Source: a virus (lineage: Duplodnaviria; Heunggongvirae; Uroviricota; Caudoviricetes). Taken from it: a DNA stretch of 10,946 bases. A program made the position numbers and the translations under genes. The stretch lies in the IMG/VR virus record IMGVR_UViG_2531839193_000009; one strand, written 5' to 3'. Below are positions 2,955 to 10,946 of this stretch, one piece after another (position 1 is the stretch's first letter; every line of letters begins with the position of its first letter). The notes below the pieces were generated by a model. It searched no databases and had not been told where the DNA came from. It worked only from the letters and a program-made list of their open reading frames with translations.

Positions 2955-3009
2955 GGTGATGCTGCCAACTTACTGATTTAGTGTATGATGGTGTTTTTGA
3001 GGTGCTCCA

Positions 3010-3285
3010 GTGGCTTCTGTTTCTATCAGCTGTCCCTCCTGTTCAGCTACTGACGGGGTGGTGCGTAACGGCAAAAGCACTGCCGGACATCAGCGCTATC
3101 TCTGCTCTCACTGCCGTAAAACATGGCAACTGCAGTTCACTTACACCGCTTCTCAACCCGGTACGCACCAGAAAATCATTGATATGGCCATGAATGGCGT
3201 TGGATGCCGGGCAACAGCACGCATTATGGGCGTTGGCCTCAACACGATTTTACGTCACTTAAAAAACTCAGGCCGCAGTCGGTAA
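3010..3285 (+). CDS. insA: IS1 InsA, 91 aa
   Basis: ORF track; N-terminal CxxC...CxxC zinc finger, then HTH, as expected for InsA. Confidence 0.9.
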
Positions 3286-3707
3286 CCTCGCGCATACAGC
3301 CGGGCAGTGACGTCATCGTCTGCGCGGAAATGGACGAACAGTGGGGCTATGTCGGGGCTAAATCGCGCCAGCGCTGGCTGTTTTACGCGTATGACAGTCT
3401 CCGGAAGACGGTTGTTGCGCACGTATTCGGTGAACGCACTATGGCGACGCTGGGGCGTCTTATGAGCCTGCTGTCACCCTTTGACGTGGTGATATGGATG
3501 ACGGATGGCTGGCCGCTGTATGAATCCCGCCTGAAGGGAAAGCTGCACGTAATCAGCAAGCGATATACGCAGCGAATTGAGCGGCATAACCTGAATCTGA
3601 GGCAGCACCTGGCACGGCTGGGACGGAAGTCGCTGTCGTTCTCAAAATCGGTGGAGCTGCATGACAAAGTCATCGGGCATTATCTGAACATAAAACACTA
3701 TCAATAA
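3204..3707 (+). CDS. insB: IS1 insB reading frame (made as InsAB' by -1 frameshift in IS1)
   Basis: ORF track frame overlapping the insA 3' end; 3' part identical to window bases 1-191. Confidence 0.85.
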
Positions 3708-3762
3708 GTTGGAGTCATTATGAGGTAGCCTGAGTTTAACGGACACTCCTTCCTGAAATAGA

Positions 3763-4071
3763 ATGGCATCAGAAGGAGCTAATAATGAGCAGAAAACCCA
3801 ACGTTACTCTAAAGAGTTCAAAGCCGAAGCTGTCAGAACGGTTCCTGAAAATCAACTTTCGATCAGTGAAGGCGCTTCCCGATTATCTCTTCCTGAAGGC
3901 ACTTTAGGACAATGGGTTACCGCCGCCAGAAAAGGGCTCGGTACTCCTGGTTCCCGCACGGTGGCTGAACTGGAATCTGAAATTCTGCAACTGCGTAAGG
4001 CGTTAAATGAAGCTCGCCTTGAGCGAGATATATTAAAAAAGCAACAGCGTATTTTGCACAGGAGTCGCTGA
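3763..4071 (+). pseudogene. IS600 orfA, altered: 1-bp deletions in two A-runs change the N- and C-termini
   Basis: A4 at 3793-3796 versus A5 in the other copies puts the canonical ATG (3785) out of frame; A6G at 4035-4041 versus A7G changes the C-terminus to KQQRILHRSR. Confidence 0.7.
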
Positions 4072-4120
4072 AAAATACGCGTTAATCGAACAATGGCGAC
4101 AACAATTTCCCATTGAAGCG

Positions 4121-4939
4121 ATGTGTCAGGTATTTGGTGTATCCAGGAGCGGTTATTACAACTGGGTACGGCATGAACCCTCAGACAGAAAACAAAGTGA
4201 TGAGCGGCTAAAACTGGAGATTAAGGTGGCACATATCCGCACTCGCGAAACATATGGAACCCGGCGGCTCCAGACGGAGCTGGCAGAGAATGGCATCATC
4301 GTTGGTCGTGACCGACTGGCACGTCTTCGTAAGGAGCTAAGGCTACGCTGTAAGCAGAAACGCAAGTTCAGAGCGACTACGAACTCGAACCACAATCTGC
4401 CAGTTGCGCCAAATCTGCTGAACCAGACGTTCGCTCCTACAGCACCAAATCAGGTCTGGGTGGCGGACCTGACGTATGTTGCCACACAGGAGGGATGGTT
4501 GTACCTCGCTGGCATCAAAGATGTTTATACGTGCGAAATTGTCGGCTACGCCATGGGAGAGCGCATGACAAAAGAGCTGACAGGTAAAGCCCTGTTTATG
4601 GCGCTCAGGAGCCAGCGCCCACCTGCCGGGCTAATCCACCACTCTGATCGAGGTTCACAGTACTGCGCATACGATTACCGGGTCATACAGGAGCAGTCTG
4701 GTCTGAAAACATCAATGTCGCGTAAAGGTAACTGTTACGACAACGCTCCGATGGAAAGCTTCTGGGGAACGCTGAAAAATGAGAGCCTGAGCCACTATCG
4801 TTTTAATAACCGGGATGAAGCCATCTCAGTAATACGGGAATACATTGAGATTTTCTACAATCGTCAGCGTCGTCACTCTCGTCTGGGGAATATCTCCCCG
4901 GCAGCCTTCAGGGAAAAATATCATCAGATGGCTGCTTAA
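4121..4939 (+). CDS. IS600 orfB, transposase catalytic (DDE) part, 272 aa frame intact
   Basis: ORF track; the same protein appears disrupted in the inverted copy at 9437-10304. Confidence 0.8.
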   Translation: MCQVFGVSRSGYYNWVRHEPSDRKQSDERLKLEIKVAHIRTRETYGTRRLQTELAENGIIVGRDRLARLRKELRLRCKQKRKFRATTNSNHNLPVAPNLLNQTFAPTAPNQVWVADLTYVATQEGWLYLAGIKDVYTCEIVGYAMGERMTKELTGKALFMALRSQRPPAGLIHHSDRGSQYCAYDYRVIQEQSGLKTSMSRKGNCYDNAPMESFWGTLKNESLSHYRFNNRDEAISVIREYIEIFYNRQRRHSRLGNISPAAFREKYHQMAA

Positions 4940-4981
4940 AAAAGAACAAATGGTAGTGTCCGCTATTGCCAGTACACCTCA

Positions 4982-5110
4982 TACAGAGGCGTGATGGCAA
5001 TATGGTCTTTCCGATGGCTCATAAAGAAAATTAACCTGATTACGAGGGTCATCCTCTTTTACCGGAAATAAAACGATATTGCTTAACTCATCTTCTGGTT
5101 TTATTTCCAT
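4982..5110 (-). pseudogene. 5' portion of the Zn-ribbon-like gene, cut at its 3' side by IS600
   Basis: ATG 5110-5108 with AGGAGAGGAG SD (alternative ATG 5167); frame MEIKPEDELSNIVLFPVKEDDPRNQVNFLYEPSERPYCHHASV ends in a stop supplied by the IS600 terminus (4981-4979). Confidence 0.5.
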
Positions 5111-5167
5111 GCTCCTCTCCTTTGATGCGAATGCCAGCGGTAATTGAAGCCTGATAGCTAATTTCAT

Positions 5168-5590
5168 TCACAGTATCGCCTCCTGAAAATTACCCTGATA
5201 GAAAGCCAGTACACGCTGCATAGCTTCGCTCTTCCGGCACTCGCGACAGATTATATTCAGGCGCCTGTCGTAGCGGCGTATTTCTCCGTCAGGTAATGAC
5301 CAGATAAGGTCCGGATCAACAACAACCGGTTTCCTCACCTTTACTCTCGAGAGTTTTTTGCGGGCGCTTTGCCAGTCCTTGCGAGCCTGTTCAGACGGGA
5401 ATAAGCCGTAGCCAGAATTATATACATCACCACTTGCGACCAGTTCTATGCATAAGCGACCGACAGACGCACGACTGATACCTGTTTCATCTGACAACTG
5501 CCGAATCGTGACCCGACCGTCCTGATGCACGAGTTCCACAATTCGCGTCTTCAGTTCTTCCCGCTGTTCGGGAGTAAAAGGTTTCGCCAT
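5168..5590 (-). CDS. Helix-turn-helix DNA-binding protein, 140 aa
   Basis: ORF track; AGGAGG SD 6 nt upstream; segment VTIRQLSDETGISRASVGRLCIEL resembles a winged-helix/HTH. Confidence 0.7.
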   Translation of the reverse strand: MAKPFTPEQREELKTRIVELVHQDGRVTIRQLSDETGISRASVGRLCIELVASGDVYNSGYGLFPSEQARKDWQSARKKLSRVKVRKPVVVDPDLIWSLPDGEIRRYDRRLNIICRECRKSEAMQRVLAFYQGNFQEAIL

Positions 5591-5604
5591 AAATCCTCCT
5601 GAAA

Positions 5605-6351
5605 CTACTTAACAACCCTCGAATGGCTAACATTCGGACGCCAGCTCTCCCAGTTAAAATTCACCCAGCGCCCGCCGTTCATGACCATGCGATCCATCAC
5701 CCGCTCGCCGAGCAATGTTTTCATCACCTCATAGTTCAGGTTTGTCAGCATCCCCACGCTGCGCATCGACGCTGTCCGGCGATCAACAATCTGGTGCAGC
5801 ACCACCTGCTCGTTTTTCGTCTCGCGCTGAATGCCAATTTCATCAAGAACCAGCAGATCCACTTCGCACAGCTCCCGCAAAAATTTTTCGCCTGACTGCC
5901 CGTCGTCATAGCTGGCGTGCAGGGCGCTCATAACATCAGCCACGGTAACCACAATCACTGTCTGACCGTCTTTCAGCAGGCGATTCCCGATAGCTGCCGC
6001 TAAGTGATTCTTCCCGGTACCAGGTTTTCCGCTGAACGCAAAATTTGTACACCCGGTCATCAGTTCATCGGCGATGGATTTCGCCTGGCTTAACGCGTAT
6101 CGCTGGCCGTCGTTCTGCACCTGGTAATTCGCAAACGAGCATTTACGGTGCAACGGCTGGATGCCTGAGCGATTCAGAATTTTTTCCACCCGCAACTGGC
6201 GATTCAGGCGGTTGATCTCCTCGCTACGTTTCTGGCCTTCAGCAAGTTGCCACTCGCGCCACTCCGCTACCGTTCTGAATGGGGCGGTTACATGTGGCGG
6301 GGTCAGTCGGCGGATGCGTTCCAGAACGCCGCCTGTCGCAATATTTTTCAT
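5605..6351 (-). CDS. DnaC-like helicase loader ATPase (YdaV-like), 248 aa
   Basis: Walker A GKPGTGKNHLAAAIG and Walker B LLVLDEIG; AGGGGG SD; directly downstream of the initiator-like gene. Confidence 0.85.
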   Translation of the reverse strand: MKNIATGGVLERIRRLTPPHVTAPFRTVAEWREWQLAEGQKRSEEINRLNRQLRVEKILNRSGIQPLHRKCSFANYQVQNDGQRYALSQAKSIADELMTGCTNFAFSGKPGTGKNHLAAAIGNRLLKDGQTVIVVTVADVMSALHASYDDGQSGEKFLRELCEVDLLVLDEIGIQRETKNEQVVLHQIVDRRTASMRSVGMLTNLNYEVMKTLLGERVMDRMVMNGGRWVNFNWESWRPNVSHSRVVK

Positions 6352-6706
6352 GGTCCGTTACCCCCTGAAGCCTGGCGGGATCGCACTGTCCGGCAACGAG
6401 ACGGTGTTAACCTGTCGGAGCAACGTCTCAGGCCGAACACCTTTCGGCGCGAACAGGCCCTGGTATTCATTGGCGATGCTGTGTCGAATCACCTGCTCAG
6501 GTGTAAAACCCTGCTGACGGAATTTTTCCAGTTCCCGTATCGCCCCGTTAGCGCCCTGCTCCGTTCGAATCGGTTTTCGCAATGCCTGTCTGAACCGGAC
6601 CCACTCATGCCAGAGTGTTTCCGGCAACCAATCGGGCAGCTCAATAGCCTCCGGCTCGAATTTTTTAGACGCTCGTTTTTGGCGAGGGGGAGATCAGTAT
6701 TTAGAT

Positions 6707-6744
6707 CTTCCTCTTCCTCTTCCTCTTCCTCTTCCTCTTCCTCT
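6707..6744. repeat. (CTTCCT)6 hexanucleotide microsatellite, coding poly-Glu in the initiator-like gene
   Basis: Six perfect tandem CTTCCT units seen directly. Confidence 0.9.
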
Positions 6745-6745
6745 G

Positions 6746-6833
6746 GTAACGCTTTTTGATCCGTTTGTGTAACGCTGGCAGCGTTACCTTTTCGTTTCAG
6801 TTCGCGTATTTTTGTTACTCGCTCGTTTGTAAC
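6746..6833. promoter_or_regulatory. Array of GTAAC/GTTAC sites including the 19-bp palindrome GTAACGCTGGCAGCGTTAC (6769-6787); candidate iterons or origin
   Basis: GTAACGC at 6746, palindrome 6769-6787, GTTAC 6814, GTAAC 6829, spaced 15-27 bp, inside the linker-coding part of the initiator-like gene. Confidence 0.35.
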
Positions 6834-6977
6834 CGCCCGTTTTTTTTAGAGCTTTTTCCGTTATGACGTTCAAAGTTAGGTAGAGAAAGCCCACCGTCAT
6901 TTTCGACCAGCCATCCAACCTGAATTAACGCATCAGCAAAACCAGACATAAAAGTGATGCGATCTATTGCACTTTTT

Positions 6978-6996
6978 GTAACGCCGCGAGCGTTAC
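6978..6996. promoter_or_regulatory. Second copy of the 19-bp palindrome (GTAACGC-CGCGA-GCGTTAC)
   Basis: Same arms as the other two copies; lies inside the initiator-like coding region. Confidence 0.35.
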
Positions 6997-7169
6997 AATC
7001 TGCATTACCGTCTATCATTTGTTGATCCGCCCATGCCCAGAAGCGAATAACCTTCCCTAATGCGGCATCTGGATCAATATTCAGAATCTCAGCAAGCCTG
7101 AATATTTCCGGCTTATCCGGCGTAATAACCTCGAGCTTTATCCAGTTTGAAGCCATTTGTTTTCACCTT

Positions 7170-7188
7170 GTAACGCTCGCAGCGTTAC
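7170..7188. promoter_or_regulatory. Third copy of the palindrome (GTAACGCT-CGC-AGCGTTAC), just upstream of the initiator-like gene RBS
   Basis: Sits 14 nt upstream of the ATG at 7156, next to the AAGGTGA SD; candidate operator or 5'-UTR hairpin. Confidence 0.4.
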
Positions 7189-7233
7189 ATTTAACTGATA
7201 CCGAACAAAACAATCCGGCACGATTAATTTCAA

Positions 7234-7539
7234 TCAATGCACTACGACAGAATCGCCGGGCGACCCACCACCGCTGAAATGTGCTTTCCGGTAAACGGCC
7301 TGGACAGCATCATCATGCGCATCAATTGCCGTACTCAACGCTTCCTGCGCCGCCAGTAATGCACGGCGTTCCAGGGTATCGAAGATACAGAGTCGGTGAC
7401 GCAGCTCACGCGGAAGAATTGCCAGAACCGCAGGGATCAGTTTCTGAATTTTTTCCCTTTGCGCTTTCGTTTCACCTTTCAACCAACGGTGATAGATATT
7501 CTGCTGATTGTTCCAGTCCTTGCCTGGTACCAGAGACAA
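7234..7539 (-). CDS. Hypothetical protein (at least 101 aa) downstream of dicC; N-terminus unresolved
   Basis: Frame is open back to the dicC TGA and has no canonical start (track start is TTG); the ATG at 7642-7640 that overlaps the dicC stop is 1 nt out of frame. Confidence 0.45.
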   Translation of the reverse strand: MSLVPGKDWNNQQNIYHRWLKGETKAQREKIQKLIPAVLAILPRELRHRLCIFDTLERRALLAAQEALSTAIDAHDDAVQAVYRKAHFSGGGSPGDSVVVH

Positions 7540-7638
7540 TTCGCCGCCCCCCTGCCGCAGATATTCTTCAGTAATTGCGTTAGCGACCCACGCCTGCCCT
7601 TTTTCGGCTGCCAGGGCAACAGCACTGATTCGATGTGC

Positions 7639-7866
7639 TCATGCCTGATTTTCATGAATCACCTTCCAAGGTCGTTTTGCCTTACGATATTCGTCATAAA
7701 CTTTGGGGTCGTACTGAAGTTCCCCGCCAGATGCCTCTTGCAGGCGCATCGCGCGACCTTCAGGAACCAGTTCCCCCCATGCAGCAATGCTTGCCAGCCT
7801 AACTCCTGCGGCATTGGCAAGCTTTGTTTTGCTGCCAAAAAACGCTATAGCATCAATTTTCAACAT
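7639..7866 (-). CDS. dicC: DicC-like Cro-type regulator, 75 aa
   Basis: Divergent from the DicA-like gene; AAGGAG SD; sequence and length resemble DicC as I recall it. Confidence 0.75.
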   Translation of the reverse strand: MLKIDAIAFFGSKTKLANAAGVRLASIAAWGELVPEGRAMRLQEASGGELQYDPKVYDEYRKAKRPWKVIHENQA

Positions 7867-7942
7867 ATCGAGCTCCTTAGATTTTCCTAAGGAAACTAGA
7901 TCGTAGAGAAACCTAAGTCAAGAAAAATTAGAATTCCCTAAT
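7867..7942. promoter_or_regulatory. Divergent promoter/operator region with two TTAG-N6-CTAA operators
   Basis: TTAGATTTTCCTAA (7877-7890) and TTAGAATTCCCTAA (7928-7941), between the two divergent regulator starts. Confidence 0.55.
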
Positions 7943-8350
7943 ATGAAAAACGAAACCTTCGGTGCTCGCCTCTTACATAGGCGTAAAAAATTAAAACTGT
8001 CTCAGGCCGCATTAGGTAAGCTGGTCAAAGTGGCTCACGTAACAATTTCTCAATGGGAAAGAGATGAAACACAGCCGGCGGGGAAAAGATTATTCGCACT
8101 GAGCCAAGCGCTTCAGTGCTCACCGACTTGGCTTCTTTTTGGGGATGAAGATAAACAACCAGGCGAACCGATCCCGGATAATCAGCCAGCCATTCTGACA
8201 GAAGATCAAAAAGAGTTACTTCAACTGTTCGACGCACTGCCTGAGTCAGAGCAAAAGGCCCTGTTGTCAGAGATGCGTGCTCGAGTTGAAAATTTCAACA
8301 AACTTTTTGAAGAACTACTCAAAGCTCGCAAAAGAAGCGCAAACAAATAA
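7943..8350 (+). CDS. dicA: DicA-like XRE-family repressor, 135 aa
   Basis: N-terminal HTH (LSQAALGKLVKVAHVTISQWER) and C-terminal PESEQ...EMRARVENFNKLFEELLKA, matching DicA from memory. Confidence 0.8.
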   Translation: MKNETFGARLLHRRKKLKLSQAALGKLVKVAHVTISQWERDETQPAGKRLFALSQALQCSPTWLLFGDEDKQPGEPIPDNQPAILTEDQKELLQLFDALPESEQKALLSEMRARVENFNKLFEELLKARKRSANK

Positions 8351-8382
8351 TCCCCTTTTTTCTCCACACCCTGTAATAAAAA

Positions 8383-8410
8383 GCACAAACTTTCAAACAC
8401 TTGTGTTTTT
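8383..8410 (+). terminator. Weak intrinsic terminator after the dicA-like gene
   Basis: GCACAA/TTGTGT stem with a 12-nt loop, followed by T6. Confidence 0.35.
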
Positions 8411-8424
8411 TACATCAAAAAACT

Positions 8425-8476
8425 TAGGTTTTTCTACACAAAAATCTTGACCGCCCACCTTAGGTTATTCTAAATT
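8425..8476 (+). promoter_or_regulatory. Repressor-controlled promoter for the ydfA-like operon (P-dicB analogue)
   Basis: TTGACC (8447-8452), 18 bp, TAAATT (8471-8476); operator TTAGGTTATTCTAA (8460-8473) between -35 and -10, plus imperfect TTAGGTTTTTCTAC (8425-8438). Confidence 0.5.
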
Positions 8477-8552
8477 TCATTCATCAAGACACCGCACGGT
8501 GTTCTCAGCAAACAGTTCCGCTACCCCGGCGTTAAGGGGAAATGGGGTCAAC

Positions 8553-8708
8553 ATGAATACTATCGATCTTGGCAACAACGAATCTCTGGTGTACGGCGTG
8601 TTCCCCAACCAGGACGGCACATTCACCGCCATGACGTATACCAAAAGCAAAACGTTTAAAACCGAAGCTGGCGCACGTCGTTGGTTGGGAAGACATTCAG
8701 GTGAGTAA
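8553..8708 (+). CDS. ydfA: YdfA-like small protein, 51 aa
   Basis: MNTIDLGNNESLVYGVFPNQDGTFTAMTYTKSKTFKTEAGARRWLGRHSGE; first gene after the dicA-like gene as in Qin; track ORF starts at an upstream GTG. Confidence 0.65.
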   Translation: MNTIDLGNNESLVYGVFPNQDGTFTAMTYTKSKTFKTEAGARRWLGRHSGE

Positions 8709-8720
8709 AATGAACGAGAC

Positions 8721-9010
8721 TGAGGTAGCCTGAGTTTAACGGACACTCCTTCCTGAAATAGAATGGCATCAGAAGGAGCTAATAATGAGCAGAAAAACCC
8801 AACGTTACTCTAAAGAGTTCAAAGCCGAAGCTGTCAGAACGGTTCTTGAAAATCAACTTTCGATCAGTGAAGGCGCTTCCCGATTATCTCTTCCTGAAGG
8901 CACTTTAGGACAATGGGTTACCGCCGCCAGAAAAGGGCTCGGTACTCCTGGTTCCCGCACGGTGGCTGAACTGGAATCTGAAATTCTGCAACTGCGTAAG
9001 GCGTTAAATG
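8721..9010 (+). mobile_element. IS600-like left-end fragment (290 bp), truncated inside orfA
   Basis: Matches 3721-4009 of the full copy (with A5 rather than A4); identity stops at 9010/9011. Confidence 0.85.
8785..9010 (+). pseudogene. IS600 orfA, 3'-truncated
   Basis: Canonical MSRKTQRYSKEF... start; frame runs into unrelated sequence after 9010. Confidence 0.75.
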
Positions 9011-9443
9011 TTGGATAAAATTCGCAATCTGGACTGTTCAGCAAAATTCACTGAGCACAATTTTGTGTCGAGCGAATACACCGACTCAACCGGGCGCAAA
9101 CTCCCAATGTACCAAATCACCAAAAACGGCTTCGTTTTCCTGGTGATGGGCTTCACGGGCAAAAAAGCCGCCGCATTCAAAGAGGCATACATTGCTGAGT
9201 TCGACCGCATGGAGGCCGAACTGCGCCAGAATAACACCCCACCTGCTGACAAGATGATTCCGGGTGATGGTCGCACTCTGGTTGTTCACTTCGACAAATT
9301 CGGCAATGTCGAATTCACCGAAACCGTTCCTGATGGCGCACTGGTCTGTCCCCTGGAGACTTTCCGGTTTTATCTGGAAAAACAGGGATGGACTCTTGTT
9401 AACCGGGGCGCAATTAAAAATATGACTGTGGAACAATTACTTT
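9011..9443 (+). pseudogene. Rha-family phage regulatory protein fragment, truncated at both ends by IS600
   Basis: Motif YQITKNGFVFLVMGFTGKKAAAFKEAYIAEFDRME typical of the Rha domain as I recall it; no native start, 3' end cut at 9443/9444. Confidence 0.55.
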
Positions 9444-10304
9444 TGAGGTGTACTGGCAATAGCGGACACTACCATTTGTTCTTTTTTTAAGTCAGCCATC
9501 TGATGATATTTTTCCCTGAAGGCTGCCGGGGAGATATTCCCCAGACGAGAGTGACAACGCTGACGATTGTAGAAAATCTCAATGTATTCCCGTATTACTG
9601 AGATGGCTTCATCCCGGTTATTAAAACGATAGTGGCTCAGGCTCTCATTTTTCAGCGTTCCCCAGAAGCTTTCCATCGGAGCGTTGTCGTAACAGTTACC
9701 TTTACGCGACATTGATGTTTTCAGACCAAACTGCTCCTGTATGACCCGGTAATCGTATGCGCAGTACTGTGAACCTCGATCAGAGTGGTGGATTAGCCCG
9801 GCAGGTGGGCGCTGGCTCCTGAGCGCCATAAACAGGGCTTTACCTGTCAGCTCTTTGTCATGCGCTCTCCCATGGCGTAGCCGACAATTTCGCACGTATA
9901 AACATCTTTGATGCCAGCGAGGTACAACCATCCCTCTGTGTGGCAACATACGTCAGGTCCGCCACCAGGCCTGATTTGGTGCTGTAGGAGCGAACGTCTG
10001 GTTCAGTCAGATTTGGCGCAACTGGCAGATTGTGGTTCGAGTTCGTAGTCGCTCTGAACTTGCGTTTCTGCTTACAGCGTAGCCTTAGCTCCTTACGAAG
10101 ACGTGCCAGTCGGTCACGACCAACGATGATGCCATTCTCTGCCAGCTCCGTCTGGAGCCGCCGGGTTCCATATGTTTCGCGAGTGCGGATATGTGCCACC
10201 TTAATCTCCAGTTTTAGCCGCTCATCACTTTGTTTTCTGTCTGAGGGTTCATGCTGTACCCAGTTGTAATAACCGCTCCTGGATACACCAAATACCTGAC
10301 ACAT
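9437..10304 (-). pseudogene. IS600 orfB with several frameshifts
   Basis: Split into two track ORFs (9437..9949, 9858..10304); single-base indels relative to the intact orfB at 4121-4939. Confidence 0.8.
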
Positions 10305-10706
10305 CGCTTCAATGGGAAATTGTTGTCGCCATTGTTCGATTAACGCGTATTTTTCAGCGACTCCTGTGCAAAATACGCTGTTGCTTTTTTTAATGTATCT
10401 CGCTCAAGGCGAGCTTCATTTAACGCCTTACGCAGTTGCAGAATTTCAGATTCCAGTTCAGCCACCGTGCGGGAACCAGGAGTACCGAGCCCTTTTCTGG
10501 CGGCGGTAACCCATTGTCCTAAAGTGCCTTCAGGAAGAGATAATCGGGAAGCGCCTTCACTGATCGAAAGTTGATTTTCAAGAACCGTTCTGACAGCTTC
10601 GGCTTTGAACTCTTTAGAGTAACGTTGGGTTTTTCTGCTCATTATTAGCTCCTTCTGATGCCATTCTATTTCAGGAAGGAGTGTCCGTTAAACTCAGGCT
10701 ACCTCA
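9444..10706 (-). mobile_element. IS600-like element, full length, inverted; orfA intact, orfB frameshifted
   Basis: Ends TGAGGTGTACTGG... (9444) and ...GGCTACCTCA (10706), reverse complements of the IS600 termini. Confidence 0.9.
10340..10642 (-). CDS. IS600 orfA, intact, 100 aa
   Basis: MSRKTQRYSKEF...ILKKATAYFAQESLKNTR with the A7G slippery heptamer (10384-10391 on +). Confidence 0.85.
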   Translation of the reverse strand: MSRKTQRYSKEFKAEAVRTVLENQLSISEGASRLSLPEGTLGQWVTAARKGLGTPGSRTVAELESEILQLRKALNEARLERDTLKKATAYFAQESLKNTR

Positions 10707-10946
10707 ATGGCTTCATCCCGGTTATTAAAACGATAGTGGCTCAGGCTCTCATTTTTCAGCGTTCCCCAGAAGCTTTCCATCGGAGCGTTGTCGTAACAGG
10801 TTACCTTTACGCGTACATTGATGTTTTCAGACCAGACTGCTCCTGTATGACCCGGTAATCGTATGCGCAGTACTGTGAACCTCGATCAGAGTAGGTGGAT
10901 TAGCCCGGCAGGTGGGCGCTGGCTCCTGAGCGCCATAAACAGGGCT
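10707..10946 (-). mobile_element. Diverged IS600-like orfB internal fragment running off the window
   Basis: About 98% identical to 9603-9840 of the adjacent copy, with small substitutions and indels. Confidence 0.7.

Follow-up and report, generated by a model that had tools for sequence, protein, structure and literature searches.

IS600, a well-known insertion sequence (IS) of the IS3 family, uses a programmed -1 frameshift. It is textbook knowledge that Shigella has Rac-like defective prophages and loses genes through IS activity, and errors in repeats and homopolymers are routine in draft assemblies. The stretch analyzed here, a window of 10,946 bp that is the whole of contig AKNC01000062.1 from the draft genome of Shigella sonnei 3226-85, carries IS600 copies and a Rac-like prophage in which several reading frames are disrupted. 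An earlier note on this DNA, made from its letters alone, held that decay and sequencing error account for these disruptions equally well. Comparison with sister genomes leads us to a divided answer, in which the window very probably mixes genuine, inherited decay of prophage genes with consensus or assembly errors in the IS600 copies of one draft assembly.

As the intact prophage reference we used the same region of E. coli FDAARGOS_944 and FDAARGOS_943, which matches the window at 99% identity with every gene intact, and the comparison was made base by base. The IS600 reference was the annotated copy from plasmid A of S. sonnei 53G. Orthologous S. sonnei loci were fetched from the complete 53G chromosome (L004), from several further complete genomes and from drafts of other projects; the loci named below include the window's own record (L025), CP104423.1 (L014), LR213449.1 (L020), CP102113.1 (L030) and FTTI01000143.1 (L029). 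IS600 copies were defined as orthologous by identical flanking junctions, which gave L006, L009, L017 and L021 for the copy that we call copy 1 and L004-L009 for copy 3. The products of open reading frames (ORFs) were looked up among about 15 billion proteins, a collection that includes complete S. sonnei genomes. A published table assigns strain 3226-85 to lineage II, and a sequencing platform for AKNC00000000 was not found in the literature.

The lesions in the Rac-like prophage are shared with other strains. The gene at 6358-7156 on the minus strand is a pseudogene of a replication-initiation protein, which has 262 residues in its intact form and has intact homologues in E. coli FDAARGOS_944 and FDAARGOS_943. 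In the window it is split into ORFs of 113 and 89 residues, and relative to the intact genes it shows three length changes: a homopolymer run is expanded, one copy of a 10-bp direct repeat is lost and a CTTCCT tract has grown in frame. The run, at 6840-6847, is A8 on the coding strand (T8 on the plus strand), as compared to A6 in the intact genes and A9 in the 53G clade, and A8 leads to the truncated 113-residue product. A9 is also in frame locally and gives 53G a product of 224 residues, which is still in the wrong frame at its end after the 10-bp deletion. That deletion, at 6684/6685, has removed one copy of the direct repeat AGGGGGATTT/AGGGGGAGAT and breaks the frame. The earlier note had described the gene as one A short in the A8 run and again in an A6 run at 6661-6666. 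Neither description survives the comparison, because the first run is instead two bases longer than in the intact, 99% identical homologues, with nine bases also in frame in 53G, and the second run is the same in those homologues; the second lesion is the 10-bp deletion.

All nine of the other S. sonnei loci that span the site (L004, L006-L009 and L026-L029) carry the 10-bp deletion, and the direct repeat is intact in L001, L002, L022 and L023. The A8 state is also found in L006, L009 and L026-L029, as well as in two E. coli NCTC records whose 10-bp repeat and ydaT are intact. A9 is limited to L004, which is 53G, L007 and L008, and the same three loci also share single-nucleotide polymorphisms (SNPs) at 9556 and 9729. 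The length of the run thus tracks relatedness, and in the window it is the same as in its closest relatives. Among the proteins searched, the truncated 113-residue product is encoded on 159 contigs and the 89-residue product on 8.

A further lesion, which had gone unlisted in the earlier note, affects the ydaT-family gene (7234-7655, minus strand). This gene is frameshifted after codon 13 by a single-base deletion at 7617/7618 that lies outside any run. The deletion is common to L004, L006-L009 and L026-L028 and is present in every comparable S. sonnei locus fetched. The intact homologue, of 140 residues, matches the Pfam family YdaT_toxin. Downstream of the frameshift, an ORF of 101 residues with a TTG start (7234-7539) spans the whole YdaT_toxin domain and is called as a gene in S. 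sonnei loci; a truncated YdaT product translated from it is conceivable.

Because the same prophage lesions occur in independent assemblies, in a pattern consistent with phylogeny, the initiator and ydaT lesions are genuine, inherited pseudogenes, and the initiator was dead before its A run varied further. One could instead suppose that every frame disruption in the window, those of the prophage genes included, is a homopolymer error of the sequencing platform, given that the first initiator lesion lies in an 8-base run and that such runs are error-prone on several platforms. We give this idea almost no credence: many independent assemblies from different projects share A8, the 10-bp deletion and the ydaT deletion, the A8 and A9 states follow shared SNPs, and of the three prophage lesions only one is a run change, the other two lying outside homopolymers.

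We propose that the initiator would have been inactivated by slippage in the A run (A6 to A8) together with loss of one copy of the 10-bp direct repeat, and ydaT by loss of one base. Insertions of IS600 and IS1, with IS-adjacent deletions, would have cut or removed neighboring prophage genes. After these lesions became fixed in the species, the A run of one clade would have changed once more, to A9, and the hexamer tract that codes for Glu would have varied in length, as is expected for slippage-prone repeats in a dead gene. The tract itself (CTTCCT, 6707-6742, encoding a Glu run on the minus strand) has between 1 and 6 units, depending on the E. coli or S. sonnei locus, and stays in frame throughout, which makes it a possible candidate for a variable-number tandem repeat marker.

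The IS600 lesions differ from those of the prophage in being private to this assembly. Two of the copies in the window are essentially complete: copy 1 (3721-4981, plus strand) has 1261 bp, as compared to 1264 bp in the reference, and copy 3 (9444-10706, minus strand) has 1263 bp. Both align end to end with the reference at 99.4-99.5% identity, and the termini TGAGGTAGCC...GTACACCTCA are present. The product of orfA matches HTH_Tnp_1 (PF01527, E = 1.4e-20), and that of orfB matches rve (PF00665, E = 8.7e-26). In the reference, reading one A of the A7 run twice produces an uninterrupted OrfAB of 385 residues, a length that RefSeq marks as the result of a programmed frameshift.

Copy 1 departs from the reference by three single-base deletions, all in A runs, and by substitutions at 3845, 4170 and 4698. 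At 3793-3796 it reads A4, whereas the reference and the sister copies have A5, and this shifts orfA at codon 4. In the fetched loci, 54 instances of this run are A5, and the lone A4 is the window's own record. At 4035-4040 it reads A6 in place of A7, in the slippery run of the programmed -1 frameshift, and A6 is not found there in the orthologues L006, L009, L017 and L021. The third deletion, A6 in place of A7 at 4938-4943, is non-coding and falls just past the orfB stop codon; the orthologous run is A7 in L009, L017 and L021, and A6 in L006. The first two of these contractions had been correctly recognized in the earlier note, which did not list the third. From copy 1 as written, no -1 slip yields a full transposase, as both orfA and the frameshift site are broken.

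In copy 3, orfA and the A7 slippery run are intact and orfB contains five single-base indels, owing to which the -1 frameshift fusion halts at 261 residues. The presence of several indels in this orfB had been noted before; their placement mostly in A/G runs holds up poorly, as three of them shorten very short runs (T4 to T3 at 9854-9856, C2 to C1 at 9936 and C3 to C2 at 9965-9966) and the other two, an extra T at 9492 and an extra T at 10007, are insertions outside runs. Three substitutions add to these in copy 3, one at 9556 and two private ones at 9969 and 10395. Beyond it lies a fragment of a further IS600 orfB, which we refer to as copy 4 (10707-10946, minus strand); this fragment covers reference positions 1113 down to 874, runs off the end of the contig, and has three single-base insertions, at 10800, 10814 and 10893, that are new relative to the earlier note. 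The insertions at 9492 and 10007 create an identical hexamer, AGTCAG on the plus strand and CTGACT on the coding strand, and this may be a coincidence or a systematic miscall. Copy 2 (8721-9010, plus strand), a 290-bp 5' remnant joined to an internal point of a Rha gene, is identical in sequence to the reference. Its junction is found in L004-L013, and the resulting 77-residue IS600 fusion product is on 135 contigs.

At 3793, 4035, 4170, 9492, 9854, 9936, 9965, 9969, 10007 and 10395, all orthologous copies disagree with the window, at four loci for copy 1 and six for copy 3. Apart from L025, no fetched locus contains the k-mers across any of the private variants, end-fragment variants included. 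The aberrant products of 102, 272 and 148 residues, the last of which comes from copy 3, are present only on this contig among the proteins searched. The variants 3845C, 4698C and 9556A, found in further copies too, are ordinary markers of a copy or a lineage. In total, 14 private differences (11 indels and 3 substitutions) fall in the 2,762 bp of IS600 copies 1, 3 and 4, as compared to none in the other 8,184 bp (Fisher p = 4e-9), which include a complete IS1 and 54 runs of at least 5 bases. The S. sonnei assemblies are nearly identical over the unique parts of the locus.

Mutation is not a credible source for so many changes (11 indels and 3 substitutions) in a single strain and within IS600 only. 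If all lesions were real, the IS600 copies of 3226-85 would have decayed after the split from its relatives. IS and prophage pseudogenes do accumulate in Shigella genomes, the three indels of copy 1 are all in slippage-prone A runs, and the one at 4938-4943 is common to L006. Against this history, IS600 has 13-14 private changes in its 2.8 kb, and the remaining 8.2 kb has none and is essentially identical to the relatives; a mutator background would also be expected to hit some of the 54 other runs of at least 5 bases. In addition, some of the changes in copy 3 are substitutions or insertions outside runs, and they crowd into about 1.5 kb beside the contig end. Overall, we consider real decay of the IS600 copies unlikely.

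The variants could also be real bases of other, diverged IS600 copies that were merged into the contig by collapse of repeats. Copy 1 is indeed a hybrid by its flanks and internal markers, with C at 3845 as in IS1-adjacent copies and A6 at 4938 as in the prophage copy of L006, and IS600-mediated inversions between strains do occur (L009). A broad search for possible donors, however, gave none. Across 3,487 E. coli genomes, copy 1 has 9,595 matching places, with a best identity of 99.5%, and copy 3 with the end fragment has 8,716, with a best identity of 99.2%; in 890 plasmids, each of the two copies has about 2,800 matching places, with best identities of 99.8% for copy 1 and 99.4% for copy 3. 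Among these approximately 12,000 IS600 matches in E. coli and plasmids there is no exact match to copy 1 or copy 3 of the window. The private variants are in no IS600 copy of the other fetched loci, of the roughly 9,600 E. coli matches or of the roughly 2,800 plasmid matches, and the resulting ORF products are on no other contig even though the collection searched contains complete S. sonnei chromosomes. Because no IS600 copy in the data searched carries the variants, we reject borrowing from diverged copies as highly improbable, and consensus error remains. On this comparison of sequences, the private IS600 lesions are quite probably consensus errors in repeat segments.

The kind of error appears to differ between the copies. 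All three indels of copy 1 are in runs of at least 5 bases, which hold 2.7% of IS600 bases (p = 2e-5), and a homopolymer explanation fits this copy. It does not extend to copy 3 and the end fragment, whose indels lie outside long runs, and elsewhere in the window all 54 runs of at least 5 bases are correct. A homopolymer bias of the platform in general would thus explain only part of the pattern. The concentration of disruptions in homopolymers that the earlier note had reported is thus only partly borne out: 4 of 14 small indels lie in runs of at least 5 bases, as compared to 3.8% of the bases in 3721-10946 (binomial p = 0.0015), but the other 10 are not homopolymer events. Copy 3 and the contig-end fragment look like generally poor-quality sequence, with homopolymer-type error in copy 1 only. 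In the model that we favor, copy 1 would have suffered homopolymer under-calls (A5 to A4 and A7 to A6), copy 3 and the end fragment would have gained scattered single-base indels and substitutions, and in the true genome copies 1 and 3 would be ordinary, intact IS600 elements.

Several observations weigh against this model. Long homopolymers hold just 3 of the 11 private IS600 indels, and no single known error mode covers all of them. Repeat status alone does not explain the errors, as the IS1 in the same contig is error-free. The A6 at 4938-4943 may be real, given that it is shared with the L006 orthologue, and the term error is deduced for the IS600 lesions from comparison of assemblies only. 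The architecture of the contig raises further doubts, in that copy 1 has its left flank from one genomic IS600 copy and its right flank from another, and the 10706/10707 junction is in no fetched locus except the window's own record. The contig could therefore reflect either a real strain-specific rearrangement or a chimeric join.

The junctions of copy 1 can be followed in other genomes. The left junction with IS1 (3720/3721) is also found in L017 and L021 and the right junction (4981/4982) in L006 and L009, but none of the fetched genomes has both together, and copy 1 would be a real recombinant IS600 or else the product of a chimeric join in the assembly. In L006, the copy 1 orthologue is flanked by a 3-bp target duplication, TAC; in the window, the left flank of copy 1 is IS1 and the flanks of copy 3 do not match, which is consistent with later IS-mediated rearrangement. 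At 10706/10707, which is 240 bp short of the contig end, copy 3 is joined by its left end to internal position 1113 of another IS600, with no target duplication. Reverse-complementing the right flank of copy 3 in L009 (11701-11715) yields the left flank of copy 1 in L006 (4709-4723), which indicates an IS600-mediated inversion in the L009 strain between the two oppositely oriented copies.

The A6 state of the slippery run is also seen in other public S. sonnei assemblies, namely in all three copies of L014, in L020 and in L030, at sites that are A7 in sister genomes. The second A7 run is unchanged in these copies, and L014 and L020 have private T-run or A-run indels in unique DNA as well. Given the A7 of the sister genomes, a context-specific assembly error is far more likely than a real mutation. 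The contrary proposal, that the A7 to A6 change is a real, recurrent silencing of the IS600 transposase in S. sonnei, and that the A8/A9 run and the Glu-hexamer tract are likewise hypervariable markers for strain typing, seems to us decidedly doubtful.

The remainder of the window is made up of prophage and IS segments. An IS1 tail (1 to about 216) is followed by genes of a first lambdoid prophage on the minus strand (about 217-2967) and by a complete IS1 that lacks its final 2 bp (2968-3720). After copy 1 comes the second, Rac-like prophage (4982-8720), with a 62-residue gene remnant, DUF977, ydaV (DnaC-like), the initiator, ydaT, cro, cI and DUF1391, and between copies 2 and 3 lies the Rha gene fragment (9008-9443), whose 160-residue product is on 99 contigs. 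Two different lambdoid prophages are thereby joined in the contig via IS1 and IS600 copy 1, and near-identical fragments of paralogous 118-residue genes flank this join, at 2843-2954 and 4982-5094.

The initiator-like label for the gene at 6358-7156 is fair. The intact protein matches PHROG 2509, 'replication initiation protein', with E = 1.2e-89, residues 1-262 aligning to positions 1-277 of the 277-position profile. RefSeq names the intact homologues 'hypothetical protein'. In Pfam the intact protein has no match even at E <= 10, to DUF1376 or any other family, and in NCBIfam there is just a trivial 19-residue match to DnaT, far under the cut-off. An identity as YdaU/DUF1376 was considered and is unsupported: there is no Pfam match, and among the E. 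coli matches it is just the more distant ones that carry the 'YdaU family' label.

The same truncated gene is also seen in a second prophage context. L029 (1158-1499) encodes the 113-residue truncated initiator, with A8 and the 10-bp deletion, next to a gene of the YdaS_toxin family (Pfam PF15943), an intact 140-residue ydaT and other genes, and S. sonnei may have two paralogous copies of the initiator pseudogene. The 113-residue product bears the name SS53G_2911, yet the complete 53G chromosome has A9; there may be no conflict, as a second prophage of the L029 type holds the same truncated gene.

For annotation, the practical meaning is one of hygiene. The caution that pseudogene calls in this contig need outside evidence was right, and comparison with homologues largely separates the real from the erroneous without reads. 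Decay and error were both live options, as the earlier note had said, but they are not equally good for each lesion, since those of the prophage are shared across assemblies and those of IS600 are private. The initiator and ydaT can keep their annotation as pseudogenes. IS decay should not be scored from the 'broken' IS600 copies or from proteins such as EIQ42211, EIQ42212 and EIQ42222, and neither should enter Shigella pseudogene statistics. As a rule, orthologous loci in sister assemblies should be checked before frameshifts in multi-copy IS elements are given a biological reading.

Taken together, these observations contain no new biology, and nothing here departs from systems that are already known. 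Copies 1 and 3 are like the IS600 of Shigella and E. coli, a member of the IS3 family, in their termini, their HTH_Tnp_1 orfA and their rve orfB, and copy 3 and the reference have the A7 slippery run; copy 1 as written differs in that its slippery run and its codon 4 each lack one A, and copy 3 in the five indels of orfB, differences that are private and probably not real. The second prophage resembles a Rac-like lambdoid replication module, with the same gene order (cI, cro, ydaT, initiator, ydaV, DUF977) and 99% identity to FDAARGOS_943 and FDAARGOS_944, but differs in the frameshifts of its initiator and ydaT and in being interrupted by IS1 and IS600. The IS600 lesions resemble the consensus errors of draft and long-read assemblies in that single-base indels are confined to multi-copy IS elements, A runs are under-called and the A7 to A6 change recurs in L014, L020 and L030. 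They are unlike such errors in that in copy 3 and the end fragment most indels fall outside long homopolymers, and in that IS1 is clean.

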